A stretch of DNA of 64,000 bases from a virus (lineage: Duplodnaviria > Caudoviricetes), in the IMG/VR virus record IMGVR_UViG_3300034069_002177, positions 64,001-128,000 of that record; one strand, 5' to 3'. The notes under the pieces were generated by a model. It searched no databases and was not told the origin of the DNA. It worked only from the letters and a program-made list of their open reading frames with translations. A program made the position numbers and the translations under genes. Positions 6,312-58,325 of the stretch are shown piece by piece. Within the stretch, counting starts at the first letter, position 1. Every line of letters starts with the position of its first letter.

Positions 6312-6745
6312 CAAAGTATCTTCGGATACTTGCAGTAAGACAAGGCTTCCATGTACGCCGCAAGGTATGTAGAGAAATCGCTTCGCATGGGTGAGTCTTA
6401 CTGAGAACGTAGAGATGCGATTAGAGGCGTTCTTTCCACACTTGTACACCGGATCGGTCCTAGGAGCCTATCGTCACAGACGGCACATCCGAGGGAGGGG
6501 TTGATGAACCCTTGTACGTATACATCGTCGCTTCAAGCACAGCCTCTGTGAGGAACTGTTGCCAGTTCGGACGTAACCCGAACGCTCGTAAGTTCACAGC
6601 CTATGTAGAGGGGCTGGTGGGGCGCAATCCCATTGCGGTTATGAAAAGCCGAAAACTTGCAGCATTTTCGTCATGTGCGGGGTTCAATTCCCCAAGGGCG
6701 TCGGCTCAAACCCGGCGCGGTTGGATTCATTACCGTGGCGAATAT

Positions 6746-6819
6746 GGTGGGCGTAGCTCAGTTGGTAGAGCGCTGGCTTGTGGAGCCGGATGTCGCGGGT
6801 TCGAGCCCCGTCGTTCACC
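6746..6819 (+). tRNA. trnH: tRNA-His(GTG)
   Basis: Encoded G-1 opposite C73; loop TT-GTG-GA. Confidence 0.95.
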
Positions 6820-6994
6820 CGAATTACGTTCTGATTCAGATACCAAAAAGGAATCAGAAAGTCATCGAACAGCTTGGTATCTCTGTTGTGGATGGTGTGA
6901 AGTCGTATCGAGTCATCTTTTGCGTCGGCAGGCGTTGATGACAGGTGATGCATTCCGAAAGGAACTGCCCGTCGATAGCTTCACATAAGTTTTT

Positions 6995-7085
6995 GGAGGG
7001 GTCGCATAGTCCGGCTTAGTGCAGCAGTTTCGAAAGCTGCCGTAGGTGTCACATCCTACCGTGGGTTCAAATCCCACCCTCTCCG
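6995..7085 (+). tRNA. trnS: tRNA-Ser(CGA)
   Basis: Long variable arm; loop TT-CGA-AA. Confidence 0.95.
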
Positions 7086-7195
7086 CAATAGAGTTCAAGC
7101 AGCCCTGATTACCAGGAAGCATAAGATGACACTTGGACCTAGATTTCTTCATCGACTAGCAGATTCGTTCTGACTTGTCAGATGAAGTAAGTAAT

Positions 7196-7275
7196 GCCCG
7201 ATTGGTGGAATTGGCAGACACGCTGGCTTTAGGTGCCAGTGCTTAGGCGTGAGAGTTCAAGTCTCTCATCGGGTA
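7196..7275 (+). tRNA. trnL: tRNA-Leu(TAG)
   Basis: Loop TT-TAG-GT; Leu-type D arm. Confidence 0.94.
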
Positions 7276-7421
7276 CGCACGGATTCACAAGACGACTGGT
7301 GCAATGGTCGTTGCATAGTGCCTTGTTGTGATGATGTTGCCGGTTGGATCGGTATTGCACAATTGCCCCCCAACAAATCAGGTCCACCGAACGTCGTGAT
7401 GACAGTGCGGTGGGCTTCTGA

Positions 7422-7495
7422 CGCTCAGTAGCCAAGATGGTAAGGCGCACCGCTCATAACGGTGTTACGCGGTGGTTCGAGTCCACCCTGAGCGA
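7422..7495 (+). tRNA. trnM: tRNA-Met(CAT), elongator or Ile2
   Basis: Cloverleaf; CACCG-CT-CAT-AA-CGGTG. Confidence 0.88.
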
Positions 7496-7732
7496 CAAAG
7501 GTGATGAGGAAGGTCTTGACTACACTCATTATCTAACGGGACGACCCGGCAAGGTCGCTTTCGGTTCTCAGGTTTATCCCGTACACCCCTGAGACAGCAG
7601 TGTGAAACCTTTTGCCGAGGGTTGCTGCATTTTGAGACAGAAGAATGCATGTGATGTTATTGCCTCCGCGCTGACCTCTCCATGTTGGATATCTGTCGGA
7701 TCCTAAGTTGGTCACACTCGGCTTAGTTGTCT

Positions 7733-7806
7733 GGCGCGTTAGCACAATTGGTAGTTGCAGCACCCTTTCACGGTGCAGGTTACGGGTTCGAGCCCCGTAC
7801 GCGTCA
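7733..7806 (+). tRNA. trnE: tRNA-Glu(TTC)
   Basis: Loop CT-TTC-AC; 5-nt variable loop AGGTT. Confidence 0.92.
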
Positions 7807-7822
7807 CGTTTCTTGTTGGTAC

Positions 7823-7852
7823 TTGACAAGATAGGTAAGTCACCTGTAAGGT
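7823..7852 (+). promoter_or_regulatory. sigma70-type promoter
   Basis: TTGACA-18 nt-TAAGGT. Confidence 0.65.
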
Positions 7853-7867
7853 GATAGTAGTAAATAT

Positions 7868-7941
7868 GGCGCTGTAGCACAATTGGCAGTTGCATCGGTT
7901 TCTCAGACCGAAGGTTGCGGGTTCAAGTCCCGTCAGCGTCA
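7868..7941 (+). tRNA. trnE: tRNA-Glu(CTC)
   Basis: Loop TT-CTC-AG; 5-nt variable loop AGGTT. Confidence 0.9.
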
Positions 7942-8070
7942 CGATAACCCAAACGCTCCGAGGAATGTCGGAATCACTGGCGGGTTAGATAACTAACGAG
8001 AGACACTACGTAGCCTTCCTCAGGAGGTCTTTCGTCCAGAGTCGCCTACTGAGGCGGAAGCGACTACCAT

Positions 8071-8144
8071 GCCATCTTAGCTCAGTTGGAGAGAGCGACT
8101 GTTTGAAAAGCAGTAGGTCACCGGTTCGGCTCCGGTAGTTGGCA
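8071..8144 (+). tRNA. trnF: tRNA-Phe(GAA)
   Basis: Loop TT-GAA-AA; one acceptor mismatch. Confidence 0.88.
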
Positions 8145-8171
8145 CACTGGTTCCTTTTAGGACCACGTTAT

Positions 8172-8246
8172 ACCCTTGTAGTTCAGTAGAGATTAGGGCG
8201 CTTGTCGATGAGACAGGAGGCGGTGGTTCAAGTCCACCTGGGGGTA
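8172..8246 (+). ncRNA. non-canonical tRNA-like element (loop CG-ATG-AG)
   Basis: Acceptor ACCCTTG/TGGGGGT, AC stem CTTGT/ACAGG, perfect T arm GGTGG-TTCAAGT-CCACC; G33. Confidence 0.6.
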
Positions 8247-8363
8247 CGGTTGAGAGACTTTGCAAGGTCTCGATGCAAGTTCGGCGGGAATTGAACCCGT
8301 GCGGGGCGCAAGCTACGGTTGTCGTATGAGGAAGCTTACTCAGATAGTCTTCGCGTAGCACAT

Positions 8364-8436
<73 letters not shown>

Positions 8437-8517
8437 CAAACGGTGAGAGCCACTGGTTCTTAGCCGTCTTATCTCTACATCAACATCCAATCTATAGATA
8501 CGGCGTTGCTGTAGGGT

Positions 8518-11663: not shown

Positions 11664-11786
11664 CAATGCGAGTATCCGGTACGCAAGGTTGCAACGCTCG
11701 CAGAAGTCCTAACTTTCCCACAGCAGTCCGTGAGGGAAGTCAAGCAACGGAAATGAGAAATCATAGGGTTGGCGGTTAGGCAACAT

Positions 11787-11858
11787 GGCGATGTGGTGTG
11801 AGTGGTTAGCCGTTTCTCTGCAAAAGAAAATATGCCGGTTCGATTCCGGTCGTCGCCT
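11787..11858 (+). tRNA. trnC: tRNA-Cys(GCA)
   Basis: Loop CT-GCA-AA; U73. Confidence 0.9.
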
Positions 11859-11869
11859 CAATGCTCGAT

Positions 11870-11899
11870 TTGACTTTCACCGGTCAGTCGTTCTACCAT
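11870..11899 (+). promoter_or_regulatory. sigma70-type promoter (may also drive the downstream repeat array)
   Basis: TTGACT-18 nt-TACCAT. Confidence 0.65.
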
Positions 11900-11914
11900 G
11901 TTCTATATGAACAT

Positions 11915-11989
11915 GGGGTGATAGCCAAGCTGGTTAAGGCACCGAACTCATAATTCGACGATTCGTGGGTTCAAGTCCCACTCACCCCA
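11915..11989 (+). tRNA. tRNA-Ile2/Met(CAT)
   Basis: Cloverleaf; loop CT-CAT-AA; isotype (lysidine Ile2 vs elongator Met) not resolvable by eye. Confidence 0.88.
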
Positions 11990-12163
11990 CTCAACTTCAT
12001 CACTACTCCGATGAGGTAGGGTTCCGATAAGCACCATGTGTGCTAAGATTGGGGCTCGCAGAACCACCCGGTTCTGTTGTGTGCTGGATTCCGTGTTGTG
12101 CGCACGACGTGGAATTCATCGGTCGAAGTCCGACGTATGTAACCGACGAAACAGGTGCTACAT

Positions 12164-12236
12164 GCCCGTATAGCTCAGTTGGTAGAGCGCCAGCATGACT
12201 CGCTGGATGTCGGGGGTTCAAATCCCTCTACGAGCA
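12164..12236 (+). tRNA. trnV: tRNA-Val(GAC)
   Basis: CCAGC-AT-GAC-TC-GCTGG; atypical T37; one acceptor mismatch. Confidence 0.85.
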
Positions 12237-12252
12237 CTGCTTCTTGACACGA

Positions 12253-12519
12253 AGCTATTCCTGAGAAATCGGGATGTTCCGCCCTGACCTTCGCATTGTG
12301 AAGTTCCTTACCTCGGTTTGGATGAACCACTGCGACCCTTGGAGCCACCAAGTCCCTACTCCGGTAGGGATGAACCACCACGACCTTCGCGTCCACAATA
12401 TCCTCGCCTCGGCTTGGATGATCCTCCCCAACCTTCAGATTCATCACTTCCTCGCTCCGGCTTGGATGAACCGCGATGACCTCTACCGTGGGTACACTTT
12501 CGTTTCGACGGGAATTATG
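12253..12519 (+). CRISPR. delocalised degenerate type I-E-like array: 6 repeats, five 20-nt spacers
   Basis: GGATG at exact 48-nt period (12272, 12320, 12368, 12416, 12464); 28-nt units with 7-bp-stem/4-nt-loop geometry, e.g. CAAG-TCCCTAC-TCCG-GTAGGGA-TGAACC; degenerate terminal repeat ~12493-12519. Confidence 0.8.
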
Positions 12520-12528
12520 GAAATGGAC

Positions 12529-12558
12529 TTGACAGAGTATGGTCTGGTACTGTAAAGT
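12529..12558 (+). promoter_or_regulatory. sigma70-type promoter
   Basis: TTGACA-18 nt-TAAAGT. Confidence 0.7.
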
Positions 12559-12626
12559 GGTAAACGTCTTGTGAGAGCAAGACTTCGGAACTTCACAACA
12601 CAATAGCGTTTAGTAAGAAAGATTTT

Positions 12627-12700
12627 GCTTCTGTAGCTCAGATGGTTAGAGCGCCGCCCTGTCACGGCGGAGGTCGCCGGTTCAAGTCCGGTCAGGGGCG
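12627..12700 (+). tRNA. trnD: tRNA-Asp(GTC)
   Basis: Cloverleaf; loop CT-GTC-AC; core identical to 1719-1792. Confidence 0.95.
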
Positions 12701-12947
12701 CTATCAAAGGAACCGCGTTAGCGGGTTGCCTGCGATACAGCAAGACACCAGATACCGTCAAATATCTGGTACCCACACTTCTACCGTCGATGCGGTAGGT
12801 TCCGTTGACACGGAAGGATCGTTTCAAGTGAAGGTCTTGTACTTTGTTGGGCGTCGTCCTCCGGGACTGGCGCAGCCGATGGGTTCGGTTCCGTGACTCA
12901 TCTCCCTTTTATGCCGAGTGGTTGCAAACGCGAGGAAACGGAAATAT

Positions 12948-13020
12948 GGGGTCTTAACTCAGTTGGTAGAGTGCCTGCTTTGCAAGCAGGATGTCAGGAG
13001 TTCGATTCTCCTAGACTCCA
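12948..13020 (+). tRNA. trnA: tRNA-Ala(TGC)
   Basis: G3-U70; loop TT-TGC-AA. Confidence 0.95.
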
Positions 13021-13160
13021 CGTTGGTAGACGAAAGTCTTACCTTGGTAGATGAACACCTACCCTGCTCCAGTAATGGACAGGCTCCGAAGCAGAGATTC
13101 GGAATCCTACGTAAGACTGCTAGCGTCGCACATAGGAATATCGAGTCAAGTGTTCAACAT

Positions 13161-13231
13161 GGATTTTAGCTCAGTTGGTAGAGCACCTGCTTTCAAGCAG
13201 AATTTCGGGAGTTCGATTCCCCCATAATCCG
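13161..13231 (+). pseudogene. degenerate Ala-derived tRNA with 6-nt anticodon loop (TTTCAA)
   Basis: D arm and CTGC/GCAG stem resemble Ala(TGC) at 12948 but G35 is missing; mismatches in T and acceptor stems. Confidence 0.55.
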
Positions 13232-13375
13232 CGAACAAGAAGCTGTTGAAGTTTAGGGATTAACTACCCGAGTGCAGATACGTGTGTGTACTGTTTATAC
13301 CCTAGTCGCCGGTTAGGATGATGACTGCTTGGTAGTTCTTGCAGTGATTGTTCATGAATACGAGCTAGGCTCTGT

Positions 13376-19692: not shown

Positions 19693-20190
19693 ATGACCGG
19701 TGTAATTGTACTGAATGCAAGTTATGAGCCCCTAGGCGTTGTTTCGCTCCACAAGGCGATGAAGAACATCATCCGTGGTCGTGTCGAAGTTGTACGTGCG
19801 CACGATTCTGATGTCATCCACACGTCTTCTGGTGTGCTCGCTGTGCCTATCGCTGTTCGTTTCACCAAGATGGTTCGGGTTCCTTACCGTAATGGTGAGA
19901 TGCAGCCGCACCTGAAGAAGGTTTTGATCCGTGACAACTACACGTGTGCCTACTGCGGTAAGCACGCTAAGACAGTTGACCACATCCAGCCTAAGTCCCG
20001 TGGTGGTAAGAACACGTGGATGAACCTCATTGCTGCTTGCCAGCCTTGTAACGGTAAGAAGGCGAACAAGACTCCTGAGGAAGCACACATGGTTCTTCAG
20101 TTCCAGCCGCACCCTGTCTACCAGCAGGATGTCCTGACGGCGAACATTGCCAAGACAGGCTTCAGCATGGATACTCTGTTCGACTTCTGA
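19693..20190 (+). CDS. HNH endonuclease
   Basis: RDNYTCAYCG...TVDHIQPKSRGG...NLIAACQPCNGKK; RBS AGGAGA. Confidence 0.92.
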   Translation: MTGVIVLNASYEPLGVVSLHKAMKNIIRGRVEVVRAHDSDVIHTSSGVLAVPIAVRFTKMVRVPYRNGEMQPHLKKVLIRDNYTCAYCGKHAKTVDHIQPKSRGGKNTWMNLIAACQPCNGKKANKTPEEAHMVLQFQPHPVYQQDVLTANIAKTGFSMDTLFDF

Positions 20191-20290
20191 ACGAACTAGC
20201 TACACCCTCGGGGACAACTATCTATGGGTGGTTGTCCCCGAGCCATTTGCGGAGTACGCTCCGCTTGTCAGTCAAGAGAAAGAGAAAAAG

Positions 20291-21493
20291 ATGAGTAACG
20301 AATTAGGATTCCCAATCGAGATGATTGGTACCAAGGCTCCGGTCCGAATGTGGGCTAATGAGTGGGAAGTAGAGCATGATGCGTTGAAGCAGCTACGGAA
20401 TATTGCTTCGATGCCTTGGGTTCACGGCGTCCGTGTGATGCCTGACGTGCATGTCGGCAAGGGCGCTACCGTTGGTTCGGTTATCGCTATGAAGCAAGCC
20501 GTATCTCCCAATGCTGTTGGTGTTGATATTGGCTGTGGAGTTGTAGCCGTTCGCACGAGCTTGCGCGAAGAAGATTTAGAGCGTTTGCCTCAGTTACGTG
20601 CGGCTATTGAGAACTCCATCCCTGTCGGTTTCCGTGGACATGACCGTGATGTGAATGTCCGCCAGCTTGGTCTTGAACGAGGCTGGGATAACTTCTGGGG
20701 CGACTACAAGAATTTGCACAAGGATGCCGATGCTATTGAGGGTAGAGCGCACTCTCAAATGGGTACATTAGGTGGCGGTAATCACTTCATCGAACTCTGT
20801 GTAGACGAAGCCGGTGATGTGTGGCTAACGCTGCACTCCGGTTCTCGTAACATCGGCAAGTCACTTGCGGAACGTCACATCGACATTGCGCAGAAGCTTG
20901 CTCACAATGACGGCTTGGTTGACCGAGACCTGGCGGTGTTCTTATCGGGTACGCCCGAAATGGATGCTTACCGTCACGACTTGATGTGGGCTCAGGAGTA
21001 TGCGCTACGTTCTCGCTCGATCATGATGGCGCTGTTCCGCAAGGCACTTCGTGATCACTACGGTGACAGCAAGACCGTCACCTTCGATGAAGAAATCAAT
21101 GTGCACCACAACTACGTCGCTGAGGAAATCATCGACGGCGAAGAGATGTTGGTTACCCGTAAGGGCGCTATTCGCGCAGGTCTTGGCGATGTTGCATTGA
21201 TTCCTGGTTCGATGGGTACCGGTTCGTATGTTGTTCGTGGTCTCGGAAACGATGCTTCGTTCCAGTCGGCATCTCACGGCGCTGGTCGTCGTATGAGCCG
21301 CAGCGCTGCAAAGCGGAAGTACACGGTCGAAGACTTGATTGCTCAGACAAAGGGTGTTGAGTCTCGTAAGGACCAGGGTGTTGTCGATGAGATTCCAGCG
21401 GCATACAAGGATTTGAAGCATGTCATGGATTCGCAGTCGGACTTGGTAGAAATCGTTCAGCACCTACGAACGGTTCTCTGCGTCAAGGGCTAG
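20291..21493 (+). CDS. rtcB: RtcB RNA ligase
   Basis: MPDVHVGKGATVG, VGVDIGCG, GTLGGGNHF, HSGSR, HHNY, RKGA, PGSMG, HGAGR, DEIPAAYK. Confidence 0.97.
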   Translation: MSNELGFPIEMIGTKAPVRMWANEWEVEHDALKQLRNIASMPWVHGVRVMPDVHVGKGATVGSVIAMKQAVSPNAVGVDIGCGVVAVRTSLREEDLERLPQLRAAIENSIPVGFRGHDRDVNVRQLGLERGWDNFWGDYKNLHKDADAIEGRAHSQMGTLGGGNHFIELCVDEAGDVWLTLHSGSRNIGKSLAERHIDIAQKLAHNDGLVDRDLAVFLSGTPEMDAYRHDLMWAQEYALRSRSIMMALFRKALRDHYGDSKTVTFDEEINVHHNYVAEEIIDGEEMLVTRKGAIRAGLGDVALIPGSMGTGSYVVRGLGNDASFQSASHGAGRRMSRSAAKRKYTVEDLIAQTKGVESRKDQGVVDEIPAAYKDLKHVMDSQSDLVEIVQHLRTVLCVKG

Positions 21494-29094: not shown

Positions 29095-29568
29095 ATGTCA
29101 GCAGTTGTAAGTACCCCCATCGTAGATAAGAACGGTAAGCAGACTACGGTCAAAAAGAAGGTTGGTGAGGCTCCCAAGCCTTTCGCCCGTCCTATCCCAT
29201 TCCCTATCTCACGACCACAGCAGGCATCGCCTGAGCAAAGAAACAAGGACGCAGTACGAGATCTTCTTACCCGCCTTTCGGTAGGAGACAGCAGCACCAT
29301 CGCTGACTCGGATGTCAAGGAAGTAAGCACGAGTATTTACTCGGTCACCAGCGGCAAGACCAAGTTCGTTGCATTCGACAACATTCAGGTCTCTGATGAA
29401 ATCGTTTCCGGTATTGTCACCATTGACGACGGAAAAGTCGGTGGAAGCCTTTACCTCGGTAACGGTACCAGCAGCCAGACTGATTCGAGGGGTTACGCTC
29501 TTCGTTCTTCCAATGCCGCTGTTGAAACTCAGCTAGATGCAGCAAAGATTGCGTTGCCTTACCTCTAA
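29095..29568 (+). CDS. hypothetical protein, DKNG-motif family
   Basis: N-terminal TPIVDKNGKQTTVKKK; RBS GAAAGG. Confidence 0.8.
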   Translation: MSAVVSTPIVDKNGKQTTVKKKVGEAPKPFARPIPFPISRPQQASPEQRNKDAVRDLLTRLSVGDSSTIADSDVKEVSTSIYSVTSGKTKFVAFDNIQVSDEIVSGIVTIDDGKVGGSLYLGNGTSSQTDSRGYALRSSNAAVETQLDAAKIALPYL

Positions 29569-50276: not shown

Positions 50277-53210
50277 ATGATGGTATCCACACACGAGAAG
50301 CACGCTCTCCGAGTTGCGCGTAAGGCAGAAGACCTGTCTTACGCCGCGCGTTCGGTTTGGGGTAAGACCCAGCGTGGTAAAGATACGACCTTCTGGATGC
50401 CTCTTTACCGGCACTTGGCTGATACTGCACTCGTATCTGCGCGCCTTTACGATGAATACCTGCCGGATGCCGCCAAGCGAGATATTGCTCTTGCTCTGAA
50501 CAGCGAAGATGATGCGCGGACACTAGCTATTTTCCTTGCTGGAATTCACGACCTCGGTAAGTCATCGCCTGTTTTCCTTGCATCAGAAGATGATTACGTC
50601 AATGAACTCAATGATGCATTCATGGGCAAAAATGGTCTTCACGTGCCACGAGGTCTTGATAGATCTCTAATTCGACATGAAGTAATCTCAGCTATTCTCA
50701 TCAAGCGCTTCCTTCTCGAAGAAGGTGTCTCTGAGGCTGTAGCTGATTCTTGCGCAATCGTAGTCGGTAGTCATCACGGCAACCCCCTCTCTCACGAGCT
50801 TCTTGCGTCTTGTATCGGTCGAGAAGACATCATCGGAACTTCTGACCCAGCCTGGCTCGCCGTTCAGCGCGAAATCTTTGACTATGCCGCTGTCATCTCC
50901 GGGGCTAACAAGAGCTTCATTAATTGGCGAGACATGGAGATGTCACGTTCAGCAGAAACCATTCTTATGGGTTTCGTTGTAGCTGCTGACTGGGGTGCCT
51001 CTCAGGGTTTTGGCTGCAATATGTCTTTGAAATCCAAGACCCTCGACATCGACGTAAAGAAAGACACCAGCCGAGCGGTGGTTGCGCTCAACGCACTGCC
51101 TATTCCATCCAAGTGGACACCCTCTGTACCGCCCAACGCAGGGAGTGAATTCTTCCATACGAGATTTGGCTTCCCACCACGACCTGTACAGAAGGCTGCG
51201 CTTGATGCTGTTCGTCCAATGACAGACAGTGGGCTAATAATCATCGAAGCCCCAATGGGTGAAGGCAAAACGGAAGCCGCGCTCGCTGTTGCTGAGGTAA
51301 TGGCTCAGCAAACTGGTGCGTCAGGAGTATTTGTTGCACTACCCACCATTGCTACCTCAGACGCCATATTCAGCCGCGCCCGAAGCTGGGTTAGCAACCT
51401 TCCCGGAAGCCGCAGTGGCATGTCGATGTATCTTTCGCATTCCCGTTCCGGTCTCAACGGTAACTTCGCTGAACTACTAGATGCGGCTCGTGAAGAAGGC
51501 GTCGATGGTGGACACGTCAATAGGTGGCTGTCACAGGGAACCAAGCTGGGTCCGCTATCGAACTTCGTAGTCGGGACTATCGACCAAGTGCTTGTTTCGG
51601 CATTGGCATCAAGGCATGTCACGTTGCGACATCTAGCGCTCGCCAACAAGGTTGTAATTCTCGATGAGGTGCATGCATATGATGCGTATATGAACGTATT
51701 CCTGGCACGAGCGTTGCAATGGTTGGGTTATTACGGCGTTCCCGTCGTGCTTCTTTCGGCTACTTTGCCGACCGATATCCGCAAGGATCTGGTGGTGGCA
51801 TATAACGACGGCTTGAATTCGCGTCGGACGATGAGTGCACCTGTCAAGGAACTTCCTCTTACTTTGGACATCACTAAGATTGCAAAGTCCAAGCAGTCAC
51901 GTAATGACATTGGCGGTATTGACCTGAAGCCGTTGACAACTATTCGGTACCCTTTGATTTCCGTTCTGGACAAGAAAGGTGTGCATGTTCATCACACCGA
52001 AGGTGCATCGAGCAAGAATCCGCTCGCTCTGAATGTGCTTCCTGGCGGTGGTAACGACGAGACGCTCGCGAAGCGTCTTTCTGACCGACTCATCCACGGC
52101 GGGTGTATCGGAATCTTCCGTAATACGGTCGCTCGTTCTCAGCAGACCTATGACGCCATGAAGGCATACTTTGCGGAGCAAGAAATTCCTGTCGAGGTTC
52201 TTCTACTCCACTCGCGATTCATCGGGCTTGATCGCGCCGTCAAAGAACAGCGGCTCAACAACTATCTCGGCAAGGAATTTGCCAAACGACCTAAGCGGCT
52301 CATTGTAGTCGGAACACAGGTGATGGAACAGTCGCTTGATATCGATTTCGATGAAAGCATTTCGGACATTGCTCCTATTGACTCGCTGTTGCAGCGCGCG
52401 GGACGAACCCATCGCCACAACATCCCCAATCGTCCGCGCGTATTCACGGAACCAAGACTTTACATCGCTGGAGTCTCTAACTGGGATGAAGAAGAAGGTG
52501 GGGTGCCTGGTGTCAACCATGCCGCAGAAGCGATTTATCCACTCAAAACACTGTACCGAGCCGTTCACGCCCTGCGCCCTTACGCCCTAGATGACGAGAA
52601 GCGACTACAACTCCCTCGTGATATTTCTGCCTTGGTACGTCGTGGTTATGGCGACCGTGTTCGTCCGCCTGAAAGCTGGAAGGACGAATGGAAGGTAGCC
52701 GAGAAAGAATGGCGCGATCTCATCAAGGATAAACGGGATAAGGCTGACAGTAACTATCTCCTTCCCGCGCCTGAGACCGACATCCTTGACTGGCAAAGCC
52801 ATATCAGCAAGGGTGTTGGAGATAGCGAATCCAAAGCACTCGCGTCTGTCCGAGACATCGATGATGAGGAAGAGATCATCTTGCTCAAGTCGAATGGAAA
52901 GGGTCAGATCCAAACTCTCGATGGAGAGTTTGCTGGTGCTGGTCTCGCAGTTGATTTCGAGAGTAAACCTAATCACGAAACTGCACTTGCTATTGCGGCA
53001 AGCATGTTGCGTCTCCGGGCAAAAGAATTTGCTGCCCTTGACGCTGAGTCGGTTCTATTCGACACCGATCTGATTGGTGAATGGAAAGCGATTCCGATTC
53101 TACGTCACAAGAAAATTCTGGTGCTGCGAGAGAACATGGTTATCAACGGCAAGGGTTTTGCTGTGCAGTACAGCCATGACCGGGGTTTGGAAATGAAGGT
53201 GGTTAAGTGA
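50277..53210 (+). CDS. cas3: CRISPR-associated helicase/nuclease Cas3
   Basis: HD domain (HLADT, IHDLGK, HEVIS, SHHG, AADW); APMGEGKTE, DEVH, SAT, QRAGR. Confidence 0.96.
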   Translation: MMVSTHEKHALRVARKAEDLSYAARSVWGKTQRGKDTTFWMPLYRHLADTALVSARLYDEYLPDAAKRDIALALNSEDDARTLAIFLAGIHDLGKSSPVFLASEDDYVNELNDAFMGKNGLHVPRGLDRSLIRHEVISAILIKRFLLEEGVSEAVADSCAIVVGSHHGNPLSHELLASCIGREDIIGTSDPAWLAVQREIFDYAAVISGANKSFINWRDMEMSRSAETILMGFVVAADWGASQGFGCNMSLKSKTLDIDVKKDTSRAVVALNALPIPSKWTPSVPPNAGSEFFHTRFGFPPRPVQKAALDAVRPMTDSGLIIIEAPMGEGKTEAALAVAEVMAQQTGASGVFVALPTIATSDAIFSRARSWVSNLPGSRSGMSMYLSHSRSGLNGNFAELLDAAREEGVDGGHVNRWLSQGTKLGPLSNFVVGTIDQVLVSALASRHVTLRHLALANKVVILDEVHAYDAYMNVFLARALQWLGYYGVPVVLLSATLPTDIRKDLVVAYNDGLNSRRTMSAPVKELPLTLDITKIAKSKQSRNDIGGIDLKPLTTIRYPLISVLDKKGVHVHHTEGASSKNPLALNVLPGGGNDETLAKRLSDRLIHGGCIGIFRNTVARSQQTYDAMKAYFAEQEIPVEVLLLHSRFIGLDRAVKEQRLNNYLGKEFAKRPKRLIVVGTQVMEQSLDIDFDESISDIAPIDSLLQRAGRTHRHNIPNRPRVFTEPRLYIAGVSNWDEEEGGVPGVNHAAEAIYPLKTLYRAVHALRPYALDDEKRLQLPRDISALVRRGYGDRVRPPESWKDEWKVAEKEWRDLIKDKRDKADSNYLLPAPETDILDWQSHISKGVGDSESKALASVRDIDDEEEIILLKSNGKGQIQTLDGEFAGAGLAVDFESKPNHETALAIAASMLRLRAKEFAALDAESVLFDTDLIGEWKAIPILRHKKILVLRENMVINGKGFAVQYSHDRGLEMKVVK

Positions 53211-55261
53211 CATCGTTCAACCTTGTTGATGAGCCTTGGATTCCAGTCAATCTGATTAGCGGTGAGGGTGTTGACGTTTCACTAAGAGATCTCTTTGCCC
53301 GCTCTCGTGATATTCGCTCTATCGAGTGTGACAACCCGATGCAGACCGCAGCGGTGGTGAGACTGGTACTTGCTGTAATGTACCGGGCTCTTACGCCTTT
53401 GTTTCTGGCGCAGAAGAATCACGCTAAAAACGCCGATGTCACTCTCTGGAAAATGCTGTGGGACGACGAGACGGGCACACTTGCCAACACAATCGACAGC
53501 TATCTCGAAACATGGAAGAATCGCTTCGATCTATTCGATGCCAAGCGCCCTTTCTACCAAATCGCTGACTTGGAATACAGCAGCGCCGATGAAAGCAATC
53601 GAGGCGAAATCAAGCGCAGCCTTGGAAAGATGATGCCTGACGGTGACATCATCAGCGTTTTCAAGAACAGCGATTTTGCTGCTAAGGTGAGTTATGCAGA
53701 AGCGGCGCGTATTCTCATTGGCTACCATTCGTGGTCAACTCTCGCTCCACTCAGTCCTGTGGTGGGTATTTACCCGGATGACGAGCTAGCTATTTCACGA
53801 CTGTATCCCAAAGGTCATCGCGGTTGGTGTTCTTCAATCGGGATCACCCTCATGGTAGGTCGCAATTTCTATGAGACGGCGATGCTCAACTTCGTCCCCA
53901 GCCAACTCAATTTCAAAGATGTACCTTTCTGGGAAGAGGCTAAGGCTCGAAAAGTGCCGATCCTCTATGAAATGCCAGATGGTCTCGCCAAGCCCATCCT
54001 CAAATCTCGCAATGCCAAACCTGTTGGTCAGGTACAGCTTTTCGTTTGGTTCGCTAAGAGCGTTCGACTAATTCCCGAAAACGGTAAAGTCGTTGCGGCT
54101 ATTTCATCCGAGCACGATTCACTGAGTTCCCGAAGCTCCAATGTACACATGGCTCGACACCATGAAACTCAAACTGCTTGGCGCGAAACGGAGAAAGGTG
54201 AGATGGCGGCGTATCACTTTGTCAGCGACTCGGTTTGGCAGAACATTCCCGCAGTGCTTCCCAAGACTCGTGATGGATTCCTTGCCCCACTCAACGTTAC
54301 ATGGTCGGCAAAGGTCGTCAACTTACTCGGTATTCGGCTACCCGCACGAATTCGCATTATCGGAGCGAGTACCGATGATCGTGCGCAAACATTTCGAGGC
54401 GTTATTGACAAGAGCGTTACCATCTCGTCTTTGTCCAAACTGGATAATCCCGTTGTCACAGCCCGTATTGCAGATACTGCCGAAACGTTGACGAAAATGG
54501 TTAGGACTTACTACTACGGCTTTGCACGCGATGTCCTCTCTACCAAGTACGGGGAGGTGTCCAGCATCCTTTTAGATGCCCTTATGTCGCCAGCTAACGT
54601 TGTCTTGGACAAGTCCTTCGTCTCTTTGTTCCGGCTCGCTACAGACCCGAATGAGCCGAACGTTGATACTGTTATCGATGGCTTGGTCGAACACTTGATC
54701 GAGCTATCTCAGGAAGTAGCCAATGATTCAAACGGAACTGACTTGCTGGGAAAATGGCACCACATCAACGGAGAAAACAAGCTTCTTTCGATTGCTGCCT
54801 CACGCGCAAGATTGTTACGGGGAATTCAGCCCGAACGCAAGAAATCGTTTGGAAAACTGACCGAAGATGCTGGGTTTGTAAGGTGGGCGATCAATAAGAA
54901 CCTCGCCAGCAAAAAGCTGAGCCCCGAAGAGTCCGACTTGGATGAGTTCGTGTTGGGGTTCTGGTCTGGGCGGAAAAATCTACCCAGCGGTGCTCCCGTC
55001 CATATCGTCGAGAAGACTCCTTATGACTCTTTTTCGGTATTGCGCAAGAGTGATGGCGCAGCCTTCGATGAGAGAGTTTCTGACCTTTTCGATGCCAAAG
55101 ATGATGCAACCATCAAGGAGTCCTTACGTCGTCTGGCGGGTGTGGCTAATTCGCAGGGTTATCCGATGGATTTCGGAACTCTCGCGGCTATTGGGAAGTC
55201 GATTCACAATCCCGAACTACGTCTAGAAATCGCGCAAGATATAGCAGACCGCCGTAAGTGA
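53207..55261 (+). CDS. cas8e: type I-E Cas8e (Cse1/CasA) with C-terminal Cas11 (Cse2)-like extension
   Basis: FNLVDEPWIPV...SLRDLF, RFDLFDAKRPFYQ; final ~140 aa ending ERVSDLFDAKDD..IKESLRRLAG....QGYPMDFGTLA; no separate cse2 ORF. Confidence 0.88.
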   Translation: MTSFNLVDEPWIPVNLISGEGVDVSLRDLFARSRDIRSIECDNPMQTAAVVRLVLAVMYRALTPLFLAQKNHAKNADVTLWKMLWDDETGTLANTIDSYLETWKNRFDLFDAKRPFYQIADLEYSSADESNRGEIKRSLGKMMPDGDIISVFKNSDFAAKVSYAEAARILIGYHSWSTLAPLSPVVGIYPDDELAISRLYPKGHRGWCSSIGITLMVGRNFYETAMLNFVPSQLNFKDVPFWEEAKARKVPILYEMPDGLAKPILKSRNAKPVGQVQLFVWFAKSVRLIPENGKVVAAISSEHDSLSSRSSNVHMARHHETQTAWRETEKGEMAAYHFVSDSVWQNIPAVLPKTRDGFLAPLNVTWSAKVVNLLGIRLPARIRIIGASTDDRAQTFRGVIDKSVTISSLSKLDNPVVTARIADTAETLTKMVRTYYYGFARDVLSTKYGEVSSILLDALMSPANVVLDKSFVSLFRLATDPNEPNVDTVIDGLVEHLIELSQEVANDSNGTDLLGKWHHINGENKLLSIAASRARLLRGIQPERKKSFGKLTEDAGFVRWAINKNLASKKLSPEESDLDEFVLGFWSGRKNLPSGAPVHIVEKTPYDSFSVLRKSDGAAFDERVSDLFDAKDDATIKESLRRLAGVANSQGYPMDFGTLAAIGKSIHNPELRLEIAQDIADRRK

Positions 55262-55310
55262 TTTGACACGACGACTACACTCAGATACCCTTCCGTCAGG
55301 AGAACCATCA

Positions 55311-56381
55311 ATGACAACTTTCATCAACATCCACGCCATTCAAAGCCTTCCTCCATCGTCGCTTAACCGTGATGACAGCGGAGTTCCTAAGAAGGCACTG
55401 TTCGGCGGTACAGAACGCGTTCGGGTTTCTTCTCAGTCATGGAAGTTCGCTATTCGAAAGTTCTTTTCTGATAACTACGACTCCAGCTATATTGGGTGTC
55501 GGACGACTCAGCTTCCTGTGGAGTTCGAAAAGGCTCTACGGTCAATCCGACCCGAAGCCGATGATGCACTGGTGAAAAAGCTGACGAAGACAGTTTTGGG
55601 AGTAGCCGAGAAAACCGAAGAAGACGGGGCGGGATTCGAGCCTGGTTCGGTTGCGGGTTCTAAGATGATTGTCTTCTATAGCCCCGCGCAGTTAGAGGCG
55701 CTCGTTACCATCGCCATCGAGGTGGTTGACGGAAAACGAAAAGGTGTCACTGTTTCTGAGATCAAAGAAGCATTGGTTGGCAAGAACACTGTCGATATCG
55801 CCCTGTTTGGGAGAATGATGACGGCTCAGGCGGAACTAAGTGTTGATGCTGCGGCAAATGTTGCTCACGTCATCGGAGTTGATAAATATGAGTCGCAACG
55901 TGACTCCTTTGTGGGTTTAGACGACAACCTCGGTAAGGCAAAAATCCTGGGCTCCATTGACTTCGTATCTTCGGTCGTCTACCGATACGCATGTATCGAT
56001 GCTGATTCACTCACCAAGAACCTTGATGGTGACAAGACGTTCTCGGCGGAGGCGGCTGGTGCATTTATCAATGCATTCATTCGGTCCATGCCATCGGGTA
56101 AGCAGTCTAGCTTCGCGGCTCATACCCTCCCCAGTTTCGTTCTCGTAACACTTTCAGATAATCAGCCACTCTCGCTTGCTAGTGCCTTCACTCGGGTAAT
56201 TAGCGGCGACGACATTGAAAACGACGCTATTGACGCCCTGGTGGAGAATGCGATGATGATCTCCGATAACTATGGGGAACCGATTGCTGCATTCACGTTG
56301 CATGATGGAACGCATGATATTCCTTTTGCGAAGAAGGTTTCGCTGCCCGACCTAGTTGACTCTGTGAAGAAAGCTTACTAA
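55311..56381 (+). CDS. cas7: type I-E Cas7 (CasC/Cse4)
   Basis: INIHAIQSLPPSSLNRDDSGVPK...RVRVSSQSWK, DIALFGRM, DAAANVAH, SSVVYRY, PSGKQSSFAAH. Confidence 0.96.
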   Translation: MTTFINIHAIQSLPPSSLNRDDSGVPKKALFGGTERVRVSSQSWKFAIRKFFSDNYDSSYIGCRTTQLPVEFEKALRSIRPEADDALVKKLTKTVLGVAEKTEEDGAGFEPGSVAGSKMIVFYSPAQLEALVTIAIEVVDGKRKGVTVSEIKEALVGKNTVDIALFGRMMTAQAELSVDAAANVAHVIGVDKYESQRDSFVGLDDNLGKAKILGSIDFVSSVVYRYACIDADSLTKNLDGDKTFSAEAAGAFINAFIRSMPSGKQSSFAAHTLPSFVLVTLSDNQPLSLASAFTRVISGDDIENDAIDALVENAMMISDNYGEPIAAFTLHDGTHDIPFAKKVSLPDLVDSVKKAY

Positions 56382-56384
56382 GTC

Positions 56385-57128
56385 ATGTCATCCGTCGTTC
56401 TTGTCCTTTCTGGTGTACTCCAATCATGGGGTACTACCACTATCGGTCATGCCCGAGCAACAAACAGCTACCCAACCAAGAGCGCCATCGTTGGTCTTGT
56501 TGCAAATGCGCTCGGTAGAGAACGCACTGATACCATTTCGGATTTGGCGAAACTTTCGTTCGGAGTTCGTATCGATATGGCGGGCGTAGTGCAACGTGAT
56601 TATCACACGGTCAGCATTATCACTCAGCCGACTAAAGGTGACAGAGTGAATCGCATCACTGAACGCTATTACTTAGCCGATGCTGTTTTCGTGGTCGTGC
56701 TTAGTGGTACTGATAATGAGCTAATCAAGCAAATCGGAGAAGCATTACAGCGCCCCGCACGACCTTTGTTCCTGGGACGCAAGTCATGCCCTCCTATCAG
56801 ACCAACTTTTCATAGCTACTCAGATCTTGGCGTTCAAGAAACACTGGCTGCTGTTGCTTGGCAGGCTGATATTGCTACGCAGGAATCATTCATCGGTTCT
56901 CATCTCGAATTAGATGTTTACCGAGACCCTACCGATGACATCGAGGGTTTTGACTCTGATGTCATCAATGACCAGCCGAAGAGTTTTGATCCTCATGCTC
57001 GTAGGTATGCATCACGAGGCGTTTACCGCGATGTCGTAAAGATCGAGTTTCCTATTCAGCAGTCAAGAACGACTCCTATTTCTGGTTTCTTTGCGCTGGC
57101 ACAAAAGGTTGCGGAGGCAGCATCATGA
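56385..57128 (+). CDS. cas5: type I-E Cas5 (CasD)
   Basis: LSGVLQSWG...PTKSAIVGLVANALG, RDYHTV, RYYLADAVF, LFLGRKSCPP. Confidence 0.96.
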   Translation: MSSVVLVLSGVLQSWGTTTIGHARATNSYPTKSAIVGLVANALGRERTDTISDLAKLSFGVRIDMAGVVQRDYHTVSIITQPTKGDRVNRITERYYLADAVFVVVLSGTDNELIKQIGEALQRPARPLFLGRKSCPPIRPTFHSYSDLGVQETLAAVAWQADIATQESFIGSHLELDVYRDPTDDIEGFDSDVINDQPKSFDPHARRYASRGVYRDVVKIEFPIQQSRTTPISGFFALAQKVAEAAS

Positions 57129-57760
57129 CGTATCTCACCGTCGTTCCTCTGAATGCTTACAGGGCGTCCACTAAGAAGATGCTGTCTTCTCGTCAAGTTG
57201 CTCACGCAACAGTGATGCAGTCATTCGCGCCCAATCAAAATCTCAATGACGCCGATTCAAGAGTTCTTTGGTCGCTTGATGTTTCGGGTCGAGACGTGCA
57301 ACTGACCATTCTGAGTCCAGAGCGGGCTTCTGTAGAGCACATTGTGGAGACCTGCGGATGGACAGCAGCGGGAGATTCTAGCTTCCAGCAAGTTGAATAC
57401 ACCCCGTTGGTTTCGAGTGTTGCAACAGGAAGTCAGTATTCATTTTCTGTCACAGTCAATCCTGTTATTTCGGTCACAGGAAGTTCCAAACGCATAGCGG
57501 TTTCCGAGAAAGACGTAGCTGCATGGGTTGCTTCTAAATTCGGGCGGGAAGGTATGAGAATTATCACCTCAGAAGTAATCTCGTATCGTATTGAATCCTT
57601 CAAACGAGGAAACGGCAAGGTCACTCTGGCGTTGGCTACCGTCACTGGGACATTCCGGGTTGAGGATGCATCAGCCACGCAAAAAGCTCTCGTTGCTGGG
57701 ATTGGTCGTGCCAAAGGATATGGCTGTGGTCTCATCTCACTCAACGAGCAATTAGTCTGA
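57125..57760 (+). CDS. cas6e: type I-E Cas6e (CasE/Cse3)
   Basis: HATVMQSF, RVLW, VNPV, C-terminal GIGRAKGYGCGLISL. Confidence 0.95.
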   Translation: MTYLTVVPLNAYRASTKKMLSSRQVAHATVMQSFAPNQNLNDADSRVLWSLDVSGRDVQLTILSPERASVEHIVETCGWTAAGDSSFQQVEYTPLVSSVATGSQYSFSVTVNPVISVTGSSKRIAVSEKDVAAWVASKFGREGMRIITSEVISYRIESFKRGNGKVTLALATVTGTFRVEDASATQKALVAGIGRAKGYGCGLISLNEQLV

Positions 57761-57765
57761 TTGGG

Positions 57766-57838
57766 GTGCTCCCAGTGATGGGATGTTCCTCCGTGATACC
57801 GACGTGACAAGAATTCCCCGGCACGCCGGGGTTGCACT
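57766..57838 (+). CRISPR. single-spacer mini-array with atypical repeats and a 21-nt spacer
   Basis: GTGC-TCCCA-GTGA-TGGGA-TGTTCC (24 nt), spacer 57790-57810, GAAT-TCCCCGG-CACG-CCGGGGT-TGCACT (28 nt), 5 nt after cas6e stop. Confidence 0.8.
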
Positions 57839-57857
57839 CCAATCAGATTCACTCAGT

Positions 57858-57920: not shown

Positions 57921-58325
57921 ATGGCTGTCACTCTAGATTCAATGCCGAACGAGGTCAATGTCAAGGACGCACCTCCCGCTCCTAATCTCGTCAAGGTCGC
58001 AACTCTCCGAGCGGTCACCACTCGCCGTCGTCTGGATCGTTTCTGGCAGATGATTCGCGATGAGGCTCCCACCAGCTATCCCGTTGGCACCTACAGCATC
58101 CCTGGTGAAGAGGATCTGAAGCTCGTGGTGGTCGATGTCATGAAGCCCGCATCAAGCGCAGAGCTTACCGATGACGACACAGCAGTCTTCCCGAAATACC
58201 GTTTCGGTGCAAAGGTCGTCTCTGCCGATTCGATTGCTACCGATCTCGGTGAAATCGGAGTTGCCACTCCTTACGACTACGTAGCTCCCAAGCCCAAGAA
58301 CACTCCCGGTGACGGATTCGTTTGA
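57921..58325 (+). CDS. hypothetical protein (paralog of 41483-41905)
   Basis: RBS GAAAGGA; RFWQMIRDE...GTY. Confidence 0.85.
   Translation: MAVTLDSMPNEVNVKDAPPAPNLVKVATLRAVTTRRRLDRFWQMIRDEAPTSYPVGTYSIPGEEDLKLVVVDVMKPASSAELTDDDTAVFPKYRFGAKVVSADSIATDLGEIGVATPYDYVAPKPKNTPGDGFV

Follow-up and report, generated by a model that had tools for sequence, protein, structure and literature searches.

A CRISPR-like array of short tRNA-antisense guides in the tRNA cluster of a phage-like element, and its candidate type I-E effector

Introduction

Type I-E CRISPR arrays have repeats of ~29 nt and spacers of ~32 nt, giving a unit of ~61 nt, and the crRNAs of E. coli consist of an 8-nt 5' handle, AUAAACCG, then the guide and then a 3' hairpin. 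The locus studied here raises the question of whether a series of hairpins with a unit of only 48 nt and with unlike repeats, lying within a cluster of tRNA genes, can be such an array and, if so, at what its guides would be directed. The window, as we call the whole stretch of DNA that was analysed, is 64,000 nt long and represents bases 64001-128000 of a 202.7-kb IMG/VR virus record. An original prediction, made from the window alone, had described the series as a hidden CRISPR-like array distant from the cas genes. Based on the analyses below, we consider it probable (roughly 0.6) that the array encodes genuine, fixed crRNAs for a mini type I-E Cascade-Cas3 system of the element itself, which would have no acquisition genes and would be aimed at foreign tRNA genes.

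Results

Layout of the array and its homolog in a related element

Within its first 18 kb, the window carries 64 tRNA genes together with a tmRNA, every one of them on the plus strand. The array, also on the plus strand, is situated between tRNA-Val(GAC) (12164..12237, plus strand), which is directly upstream, and tRNA-Asp(GTC) (12627-12701, plus strand) on its far side, and comprises six hairpin repeats with five short guides between them. Copies of the motif GGATGWWCC begin at 12272, 12320, 12368, 12416 and 12464, each preceded by a hairpin of 16-18 nt. These are exact 48-nt steps, as originally predicted, and the gap of 37.8 kb between the array and cas3 likewise bears out the predicted distance of 38 kb from the cas genes. 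The motif occurs 10 times on the plus strand of the 202.7-kb record, with five of these occurrences outside the array.

Repeat 1 (12253..12281) has a leader, a 6-bp hairpin with a GAAA loop (12261-12276) and the 5' handle ATGTTCC+G (12274-12281), and is followed by guide S1 (12282..12300; 19 nt). Repeat 2 (12301..12329), with a CUCG loop and the handle ATGAACC+A, precedes guide S2 (12330..12348), and repeat 3 (12349..12377), with a UCCG loop and the same handle, ATGAACC+A, precedes guide S3 (12378..12396). Repeat 4 (12397..12425) has a CUCG loop and the handle ATGATCC+T and is followed by guide S4 (12426..12444); repeat 5 (12445..12473) has a UCCG loop and the handle ATGAACC+G and is followed by guide S5 (12474..12492). 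The array ends in a degenerate sixth repeat (12493..12520) that had escaped the original prediction, in which a 6-bp hairpin with a UUCG loop (12498-12513) is retained and the handle has decayed to AATTATGG.

A homologous array was found in a relative, L364, a 155-kb contig whose RtcB is 87% identical to that of the window and whose tRNA series is syntenic with that of the window. It lies at the same tRNA-Val(GAC)/tRNA-Asp(GTC) junction, with the same tRNA-Val(GAC) as its upstream neighbor, and consists of seven repeats separated by six guides, the periods being 47, 47, 48, 48, 47 and 47 nt. Its guides are mostly different from those of the window, with one, U5, being clearly homologous to S2. 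Separately, three protein genes (205, 211 and 162 aa) lie inside the L364 tRNA series at 6320-8470, where the window has tRNAs, and this insertion of genes indicates that the tRNA cluster is being remodelled.

The L364 array also bears on whether the series could be a protein-coding repeat. The candidate frames in the window were a plus-strand frame of 93 aa (12274-12555) and a minus-strand frame of 142 aa. However, the L364 units alternate between 47 and 48 nt and no frame is conserved, with no frame longer than 48 aa on the plus strand or 91 aa on the minus strand crossing the L364 array, and a coding repeat is thereby excluded. Minus-strand tRNA or tRNA-like genes were also considered, and none were identified in the array by ARAGORN or Rfam.

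Rfam models of CRISPR repeats (CRISPR-DR) matched nothing in the array even at E<=10, and TRF reported a period of 48 for part of it, with 2.2 copies only. The array has the regular spacing and unique guides that finder programs look for, with repeat identity of just ~60%. These results, obtained with Rfam models and TRF rather than with dedicated finders, fit the expectation that standard CRISPR finders would miss the array. A scan for a hairpin followed by a handle detected no further hidden units in the 202.7-kb record beyond the array and one unit beside cas6e, which is described below.

Transcription of the array

No terminator-like sites were detected in the region 11700-13100, so that none separates tRNA-Met, tRNA-Val and the array. 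A promoter-like site with a weak consensus match is located upstream of all three (11870..11899, plus strand), and a second, TTGACA-18-TAAAGT, is located just after the array (12529..12558, plus strand), with a similar site after the L364 array. We infer from the shared strand, the lack of terminator-like sites and these promoter-like sites that the array may be co-transcribed with the tRNAs. In a nearby spacer between tRNA-Asp and tRNA-Ala (12721-12934), contigs from two RNA libraries (freshwater, leaf litter) match the window with 0-3 differences, which hints either at natural transcription of the tRNA region or at carry-over of DNA into the libraries. Four further sequencing runs were examined that also contain this DNA, and no contig from them spans the array.

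Repeat structure, compensatory changes and the crRNA handle

The original prediction held that every repeat has a 7-bp stem and a 4-nt loop. The loops are indeed 4 nt in all six window repeats, and are mostly of the UNCG or GNRA type. The stems, however, are more variable: a perfect 7-bp stem is present in repeat 3 alone, those of repeats 1 and 6 are 6 bp long, and in repeats 2, 4 and 5 five of seven positions pair, leaving a 2x2 internal mismatch.

The repeats were also predicted to covary in their stems while drifting in sequence, and this was upheld in a larger set of repeats. Across 21 repeats from five elements, which are ~60% alike, 60 of 77 inner stem positions are paired, as compared to 59% when the arms are swapped between repeats, and in a permutation test none of 20000 permutations reached the observed value. 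The stems are held by compensatory changes, and it is the structure rather than the sequence of the repeats that is conserved.

The predicted type I-E geometry of the repeats also held, and a repeat-guide-repeat unit adjacent to cas6e has a shared handle and the same period. Two details of the predicted layout required revision. The sequences ATGAACC, ATGATCC and ATGTTCC had been considered 3' handles, and are instead the crRNA 5' handles, which have the form AUGWWCC+N and resemble AUAAACCG. The spacers of 20 nt read better as one variable handle base plus a guide of 19 nt. In 16 units this last handle base is never C, and thus never pairs with G53 of a tRNA. In the best register, which corresponds to that of E. 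coli, a handle of 8 nt precedes a guide of 19 nt and a hairpin of 21 nt, and the units measure 47-49 nt across the window, L364 and five mini-arrays.

The cas operon and the unit beside cas6e

A type I-E operon with strong Pfam matches, cas3-cas8e-cas7-cas5-cas6e, was identified at 50.3-57.8 kb of the window. The first gene, cas3 (50277..53210, plus strand), encodes an HD nuclease and helicase (Pfam Cas3_HD, DEAD, Cas3-like_C_2 and Cas3_C) in which the HD metal-binding motifs H, HD, H and HH are all kept, as determined by alignment to the HD domain of T. thermophilus Cas3. It is followed, all on the plus strand, by cas8e (Cse1; 53207..55261; Pfam CRISPR_Cse1, 1e-60), cas7e (55263..56381; Pfam Cas_CT1975, 2e-86), cas5e (56385..57128; Pfam Cas_Cas5d, 9e-39) and cas6e (57125..57760; Pfam CRISPR_assoc, 1e-38). 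The catalytic His and the C-terminal Gly-rich loop of Cas6e align with those of T. thermophilus Cse3.

There is no separate gene for Cas11 (Cse2) in the operon. Cas8e is 684 aa, with a Cas11/Cse2-like C-terminal domain: the final 185 aa have a weak match to Pfam Cse2 (E 0.037), and an AlphaFold model of this region (pLDDT 70) had CasB/Cse2 chains as all nine of its best PDB matches, with full-length coverage and probabilities of 0.44-0.99 (at least 0.80 for eight of the nine), at weak E-values of 0.07-0.8. Homologs of Cas8e with 44-62% identity are all 664-693 aa, a length conserved in 7 relatives. Based on these matches, Cas8e is probably a fusion with Cas11, and a fused small subunit would fit a shorter Cascade. 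Searches of the 202.7-kb record gave no match to Cas1 and, for Cas2, only a sub-threshold Cas2-like stretch inside a frame of 440 aa, leaving no credible cas2.

Immediately after cas6e are two hairpins that flank a single short guide, with their stem ends 48-49 nt apart. Repeat A (57762..57790, plus strand) has a hairpin at 57770-57783 and the handle ATGTTCC+T, guide M1 occupies 57791..57809 (plus strand), and repeat B (57810..57839, plus strand) has a 6-bp hairpin at 57816-57831 and a decayed handle. The sequence GGGATGTTCC, which the first repeat of the array had been noted to share with the repeat beside cas6e, occurs exactly twice in the record, at 12271 in repeat 1 and at 57780 beside cas6e. 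Since the cas6e-side unit has the same handle and a 48-49-nt spacing, the odd unit length is a property of this cas system rather than a peculiarity of a single locus.

The same cas operon followed by the same repeat-guide-repeat unit was identified in four relatives, L358, L359, L361 and L368 (the L359 protein is also encoded on a second contig, L360). M1 is nearly invariant across the five related elements, the guide in these four being identical or changed at 1-3 positions, and both of the stems that flank it differ among the relatives by compensatory substitutions. The gene cas3 is conserved in all five elements examined.

After the mini-array, at 57921-58325, there is a frame of 131-134 aa that is also found in those relatives whose loci extend to this point and had no Pfam match when the window copy was tested. 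A conserved promoter-like block of the TTGACT type lies between the mini-array and this frame, and a gene with an ArdC-N domain follows the frame within 0.1-1.1 kb.

The guides are antisense to tRNAs

In the register above, and beyond anything in the original prediction, all of the guides are antisense to tRNAs. Each is antisense to tRNA positions 52 to 34, S2 and S3 being tRNA-like in this sense, and adjoins the universal G53-T54-T55. The reverse complement of a guide begins with the anticodon, continues along the 3' strand of its stem and across a variable loop of the AGGTC type, and reaches into the T stem. On a profile of tRNA positions 37-52, built from the element's own 41 class-I tRNAs, the reverse complements of the five array guides scored among the highest 0.0003-0.09% of the 20-mers that the record contains, with S2 at 0.09%; the six L364 guides ranked in the top 0.003-2% and M1 at 2.1%.

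Because the guides pair with the tRNA from position 52 downward, their PAM side always falls on G53-T54-T55, the complement of which is 5'-AAC on the non-target strand. This AAC flank arises from tRNA architecture and was built into the search patterns, and therefore does not constitute an independent result.

Natural matches were sought in IMG/VR and in a collection of metagenomes, using search patterns in which two or three position pairs were unconstrained, and by comparison with all 964 full tRNAs of the loci analysed. The closest match of S1 was tRNA-Ala(CGC), with mismatches at guide position 18, or at 12 and 18, and that of S5 was tRNA-Val(CAC), with mismatches at 12 and 18. S4 was closest to the tRNA-Arg(ACG) of L217, a viral contig of 543 kb, again with mismatches at 12 and 18. 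The closest matches of M1 were tRNA-Glu(UUC/CUC) and tRNA-Asp(GUC) with 4-nt variable loops, mismatched at 6, 12 and/or 18. Positions 6, 12 and 18 are those that E. coli Cascade flips out and leaves unread, and S1, S4, S5 and M1 each have zero mismatches with natural tRNAs at the positions that are read. The nearest tRNA to S3 was tRNA-Arg(GCG/ACG), with mismatches at 12, 13 and 18, of which 13 is a read position. S2 had no natural match, and for neither S2 nor S3 did these scans yield a tRNA with zero read mismatches.

The pattern of mismatches is consistent with recognition of the Cascade type in the proposed register, and we consider this modest support, as the every-sixth-base pattern comprises few independent observations and the search patterns left most positions fixed; only the free positions count, and some of these are the same in all tRNAs. 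In five relatives M1 does not vary at positions 6 and 12, which argues against free drift there, and the true target of M1 may match at both positions and merely be unsampled.

Five of six tested S1 matches in IMG/VR were partial tRNA copies, with no tRNA gene detected at the match, and the contigs that matched S1 and S5 had a high GC content. The element itself encodes neither tRNA-Ala(CGC) nor tRNA-Val(CAC), and its own tRNAs have 3-7 read mismatches to the guides, including at seed positions. Self-targeting or self-regulation was considered and rejected: apart from the guides themselves, no site in the 202.7-kb record had fewer than three read mismatches to any guide, and seed-only matches in the record were at chance level and were not near promoters of the locus.

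Discussion

Proposed function of the array

The type I-E geometry, the handle and period shared with the unit at cas6e, the homologous L364 array, the compensated stems and a Cas6e that appears intact together support a genuine array. In the mechanism that we propose, the array would be transcribed on the plus strand together with the neighboring tRNAs, and Cas6e would cut at the 3' base of each hairpin, releasing crRNAs of 47-49 nt that consist of the 8-nt handle AUGWWCC+N, the 19-nt guide and the 21-nt 3' hairpin. E. coli Cascade has a step of 6 nt per Cas7, and by analogy these crRNAs would load a shortened Cascade of about four Cas7 subunits, Cas5, Cas6e and one Cas8e-Cas11 fusion. This complex would open an R-loop on a tRNA gene and recruit Cas3, with its intact HD motifs, leading to degradation of the DNA carrying the gene, which could be the host chromosome or rival elements with tRNA genes or tRNA-derived attachment sites. 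The scheme assumes AAC as the working PAM, recruitment of Cas3 on a 19-bp R-loop and the stoichiometry given for Cascade. Weighing against it are the weakened stems in three of the six window repeats, the unmatched S2 and the one read mismatch of S3.

A broader and more tentative proposal, which we regard as possible though well short of probable, is that a giant phage-like element destroys the tRNA genes of both its host and its rivals, with the T-loop serving as a built-in PAM, while it provides a complete, guide-resistant tRNA set of its own along with enzymes of tRNA repair, amounting to a CRISPR-based takeover of the translation apparatus. The mismatches at every sixth base would then be tolerated or selected since Cascade does not read them, and they may keep mature tRNAs from soaking up the crRNAs.

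Alternative explanations

The same crRNAs and Cascade could serve competition between elements, in which the relevant targets would be rival mobile elements and not the host chromosome, such as temperate phages and integrative elements whose att sites copy the 3' half of a tRNA, or the tRNA sets of giant phages. The partial tRNA copies among the S1 matches (5/6 of those tested) are in keeping with this, as is the fact that the sole read-perfect match of S4 was a tRNA on the 543-kb viral contig, and related viruses are known targets of viral mini-arrays (PMC11656645). However, an att-site copy is identical to the host tRNA gene, so that the host would be hit too, and the matches come from a viral database, which biases what can be found. 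We view a restriction to rival elements as somewhat doubtful.

The guides might also bind without causing destruction, a short R-loop blocking or marking tRNA genes in the manner of CreA/CreR or type IV systems. The guides are short, at 19 nt, and the degenerate repeats and the repeat-guide-repeat unit at the cas genes resemble the architecture of CreA; repression by nuclease-free systems is documented (PMC11656645). Against this, cas3 is kept in all five elements examined, with all HD metal ligands present, and the element itself has no partial target, even one matching the seed only. We therefore consider binding without cleavage to be unlikely.

Action at the RNA level, in which the transcripts would be antisense to host tRNAs or pre-tRNAs, with or without Cas proteins, and cause their sequestration or decay, appears highly unlikely to us. 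The guides are complementary to the tRNA itself as well as to its gene, and the locus lies in a tRNA operon near genes for the tRNA repair enzymes RtcB and CCA-adding enzyme. Yet type I-E complexes target DNA, in a folded tRNA most of positions 34-52 are paired, and a plain antisense RNA would have no need of Cas6e-type hairpins, a handle or a link to a cas operon.

Finally, that the array is a functionless relic of tandem duplications of an inverted tRNA fragment, CRISPR-like by resemblance, is barely credible, since despite a core common to the guides (the antisense of the variable loop) and a handle loosely like the antisense of the T-loop, the stems are kept by compensatory changes, the period agrees within 1 nt in two diverged arrays with different guides, the unit design is conserved beside cas6e in five elements, and the minus strand has no detectable tRNA fold.

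Comparison with known systems

The proposed mini-Cascade system has the gene set and order of the canonical type I-E systems of E. coli K-12, T. fusca and T. thermophilus (cas3, cas8e, cas7, cas5, cas6e), and shares with them the catalytic His of Cas6e, the HD ligands of Cas3 and a repeat in which a short leader is followed by a stem of 6-7 bp with a loop of 4 nt and then by an 8-nt handle. It differs from them in its guides of 19 nt rather than 32, its units of 47-49 nt rather than 61 and its repeats that are ~60% alike rather than near-identical. Unlike the canonical systems it is without cas1 and cas2, its Cas11 is probably fused to Cas8e instead of having a separate gene, its main array is 38 kb from the cas genes within a tRNA operon, and its guides are from one target class.

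Degenerate mini-arrays are also characteristic of CreTA/CreR, in which they guide Cascade to repress a neighboring gene. The likeness lies in a degenerate repeat-guide-repeat unit beside the cas genes that is conserved as a fixed guide. In contrast to CreTA/CreR, no complementary site was found in the element, even for the seed only, the guide matches tRNA genes elsewhere, and there is a second array with five guides.

Transposon-borne CRISPR systems of types V-K and I-F3 use delocalized degenerate crRNAs for homing near tRNA genes (PMC11656645). The present system is similar to these CRISPR-associated transposons in having a guide away from the main array, partly matching repeats, a short spacer and a conserved tRNA-gene site (PMC11656645). 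However, CRISPR-associated transposons lack a nuclease, serve Tn7-like transposition and have one homing site, whereas here there are six guides against different tRNA bodies. An identity as a CRISPR-associated transposon was rejected, as Cas3 is intact and no match to TniQ was found in the 202.7-kb record.

Huge phages carry CRISPR systems without adaptation genes (Al-Shayeb et al. 2020, PMC7162821). Like those systems and the type I-F system of ICP1, the one described here occupies a large phage-like replicon that also carries many tRNAs and a tmRNA, is without cas1 and cas2, and is presumably used offensively; the arrays of huge phages and ICP1, unlike this one, are ordinary in how alike their repeats are and in the length of their spacers. 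A virus may also carry one or two guides in a mini-array or a single repeat unit (PMC11656645), but such units reuse host repeats and host Cas proteins, whereas the present repeats match the Cas6e of the element, which brings its own effector. As far as the literature was searchable, we found neither a type I-E system using guides of 19 nt nor an array made up only of tRNA-antisense guides described.

If our interpretation is correct, this would be a natural type I-E Cascade that is built around a guide of 19 nt, is shorter by two backbone steps and has its small subunit fused to the large one. Such a short Cascade would be of interest for compact genome-targeting tools and for how the length of the R-loop gates Cas3. 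It would also represent CRISPR without adaptation, in which inherited guides are set against the most conserved genes in biology and a universal tRNA motif occupies the PAM position. The large tRNA sets of giant phages, which have long been puzzling, would be tied to an offensive system, and an attack on the tRNA genes of all others may be part of the reason why the element brings tRNAs of its own. Lastly, if arrays with short spacers and repeats that keep their structure while losing their sequence escape standard searches, similar systems may be widely overlooked.

Genomic context of the element

The 202.7-kb "provirus" record is a piece of a 654-kb contig, a protein of the window being listed on a contig of this size. 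Past its left end (L370) the GC content is still ~50% and similar genes (vWA, MoxR) continue, and relatives of the element were found on contigs of 229-805 kb. It is probable that the provirus borders of the record are artificial, and the replicon may extend far beyond them.

An RtcB RNA ligase gene (20147-21493) is located ~2.3 kb downstream of the tRNA cluster, and a gene for a CCA-adding enzyme is at 8389-10065 of L350; the tRNAs, tmRNA, RtcB and CCA-adding enzyme look like a kit for tRNA supply and repair. The RtcB has 70-74% identity to those of Arthrobacter and Curtobacterium which, along with the high GC content of the contigs matched by S1 and S5, hints at a host in the Micrococcales.

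No close relatives among deposited phages were identified by DNA or protein search, searches of viral contigs with Cas6e and with the array pattern returned nothing useful, and a scan of a genome collection with Cas7 detected only distant gammaproteobacterial systems (~36% identity). For the proviruses with matching tRNAs, no named relatives were found. Among the 30 largest frames of L350-L357 and the window, PHROGs recognized no capsid, portal, terminase or tail genes. The PHROGs matches were to Pol III alpha, a clamp loader, NAD ligase, topoisomerase II, RNR, SbcC, an FtsK-like protein and NAMPT. The genes recognized in these 30 frames are thus those of replication and nucleotide metabolism, and the assignment of the element to the phages is tentative.

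Two of the tRNAs called by ARAGORN, a tRNA-His with the anticodon ATG (8172-8247) and a tRNA with a 2-base anticodon, "tc" (13161-13232), had low Rfam scores and may be decayed or unusual tRNAs. The window also contains a family of 33-nt direct repeats, at 29125, 42065, 47694 and 59510, which are near the starts of four unrelated genes and code for a "DKNG" N-terminal motif.
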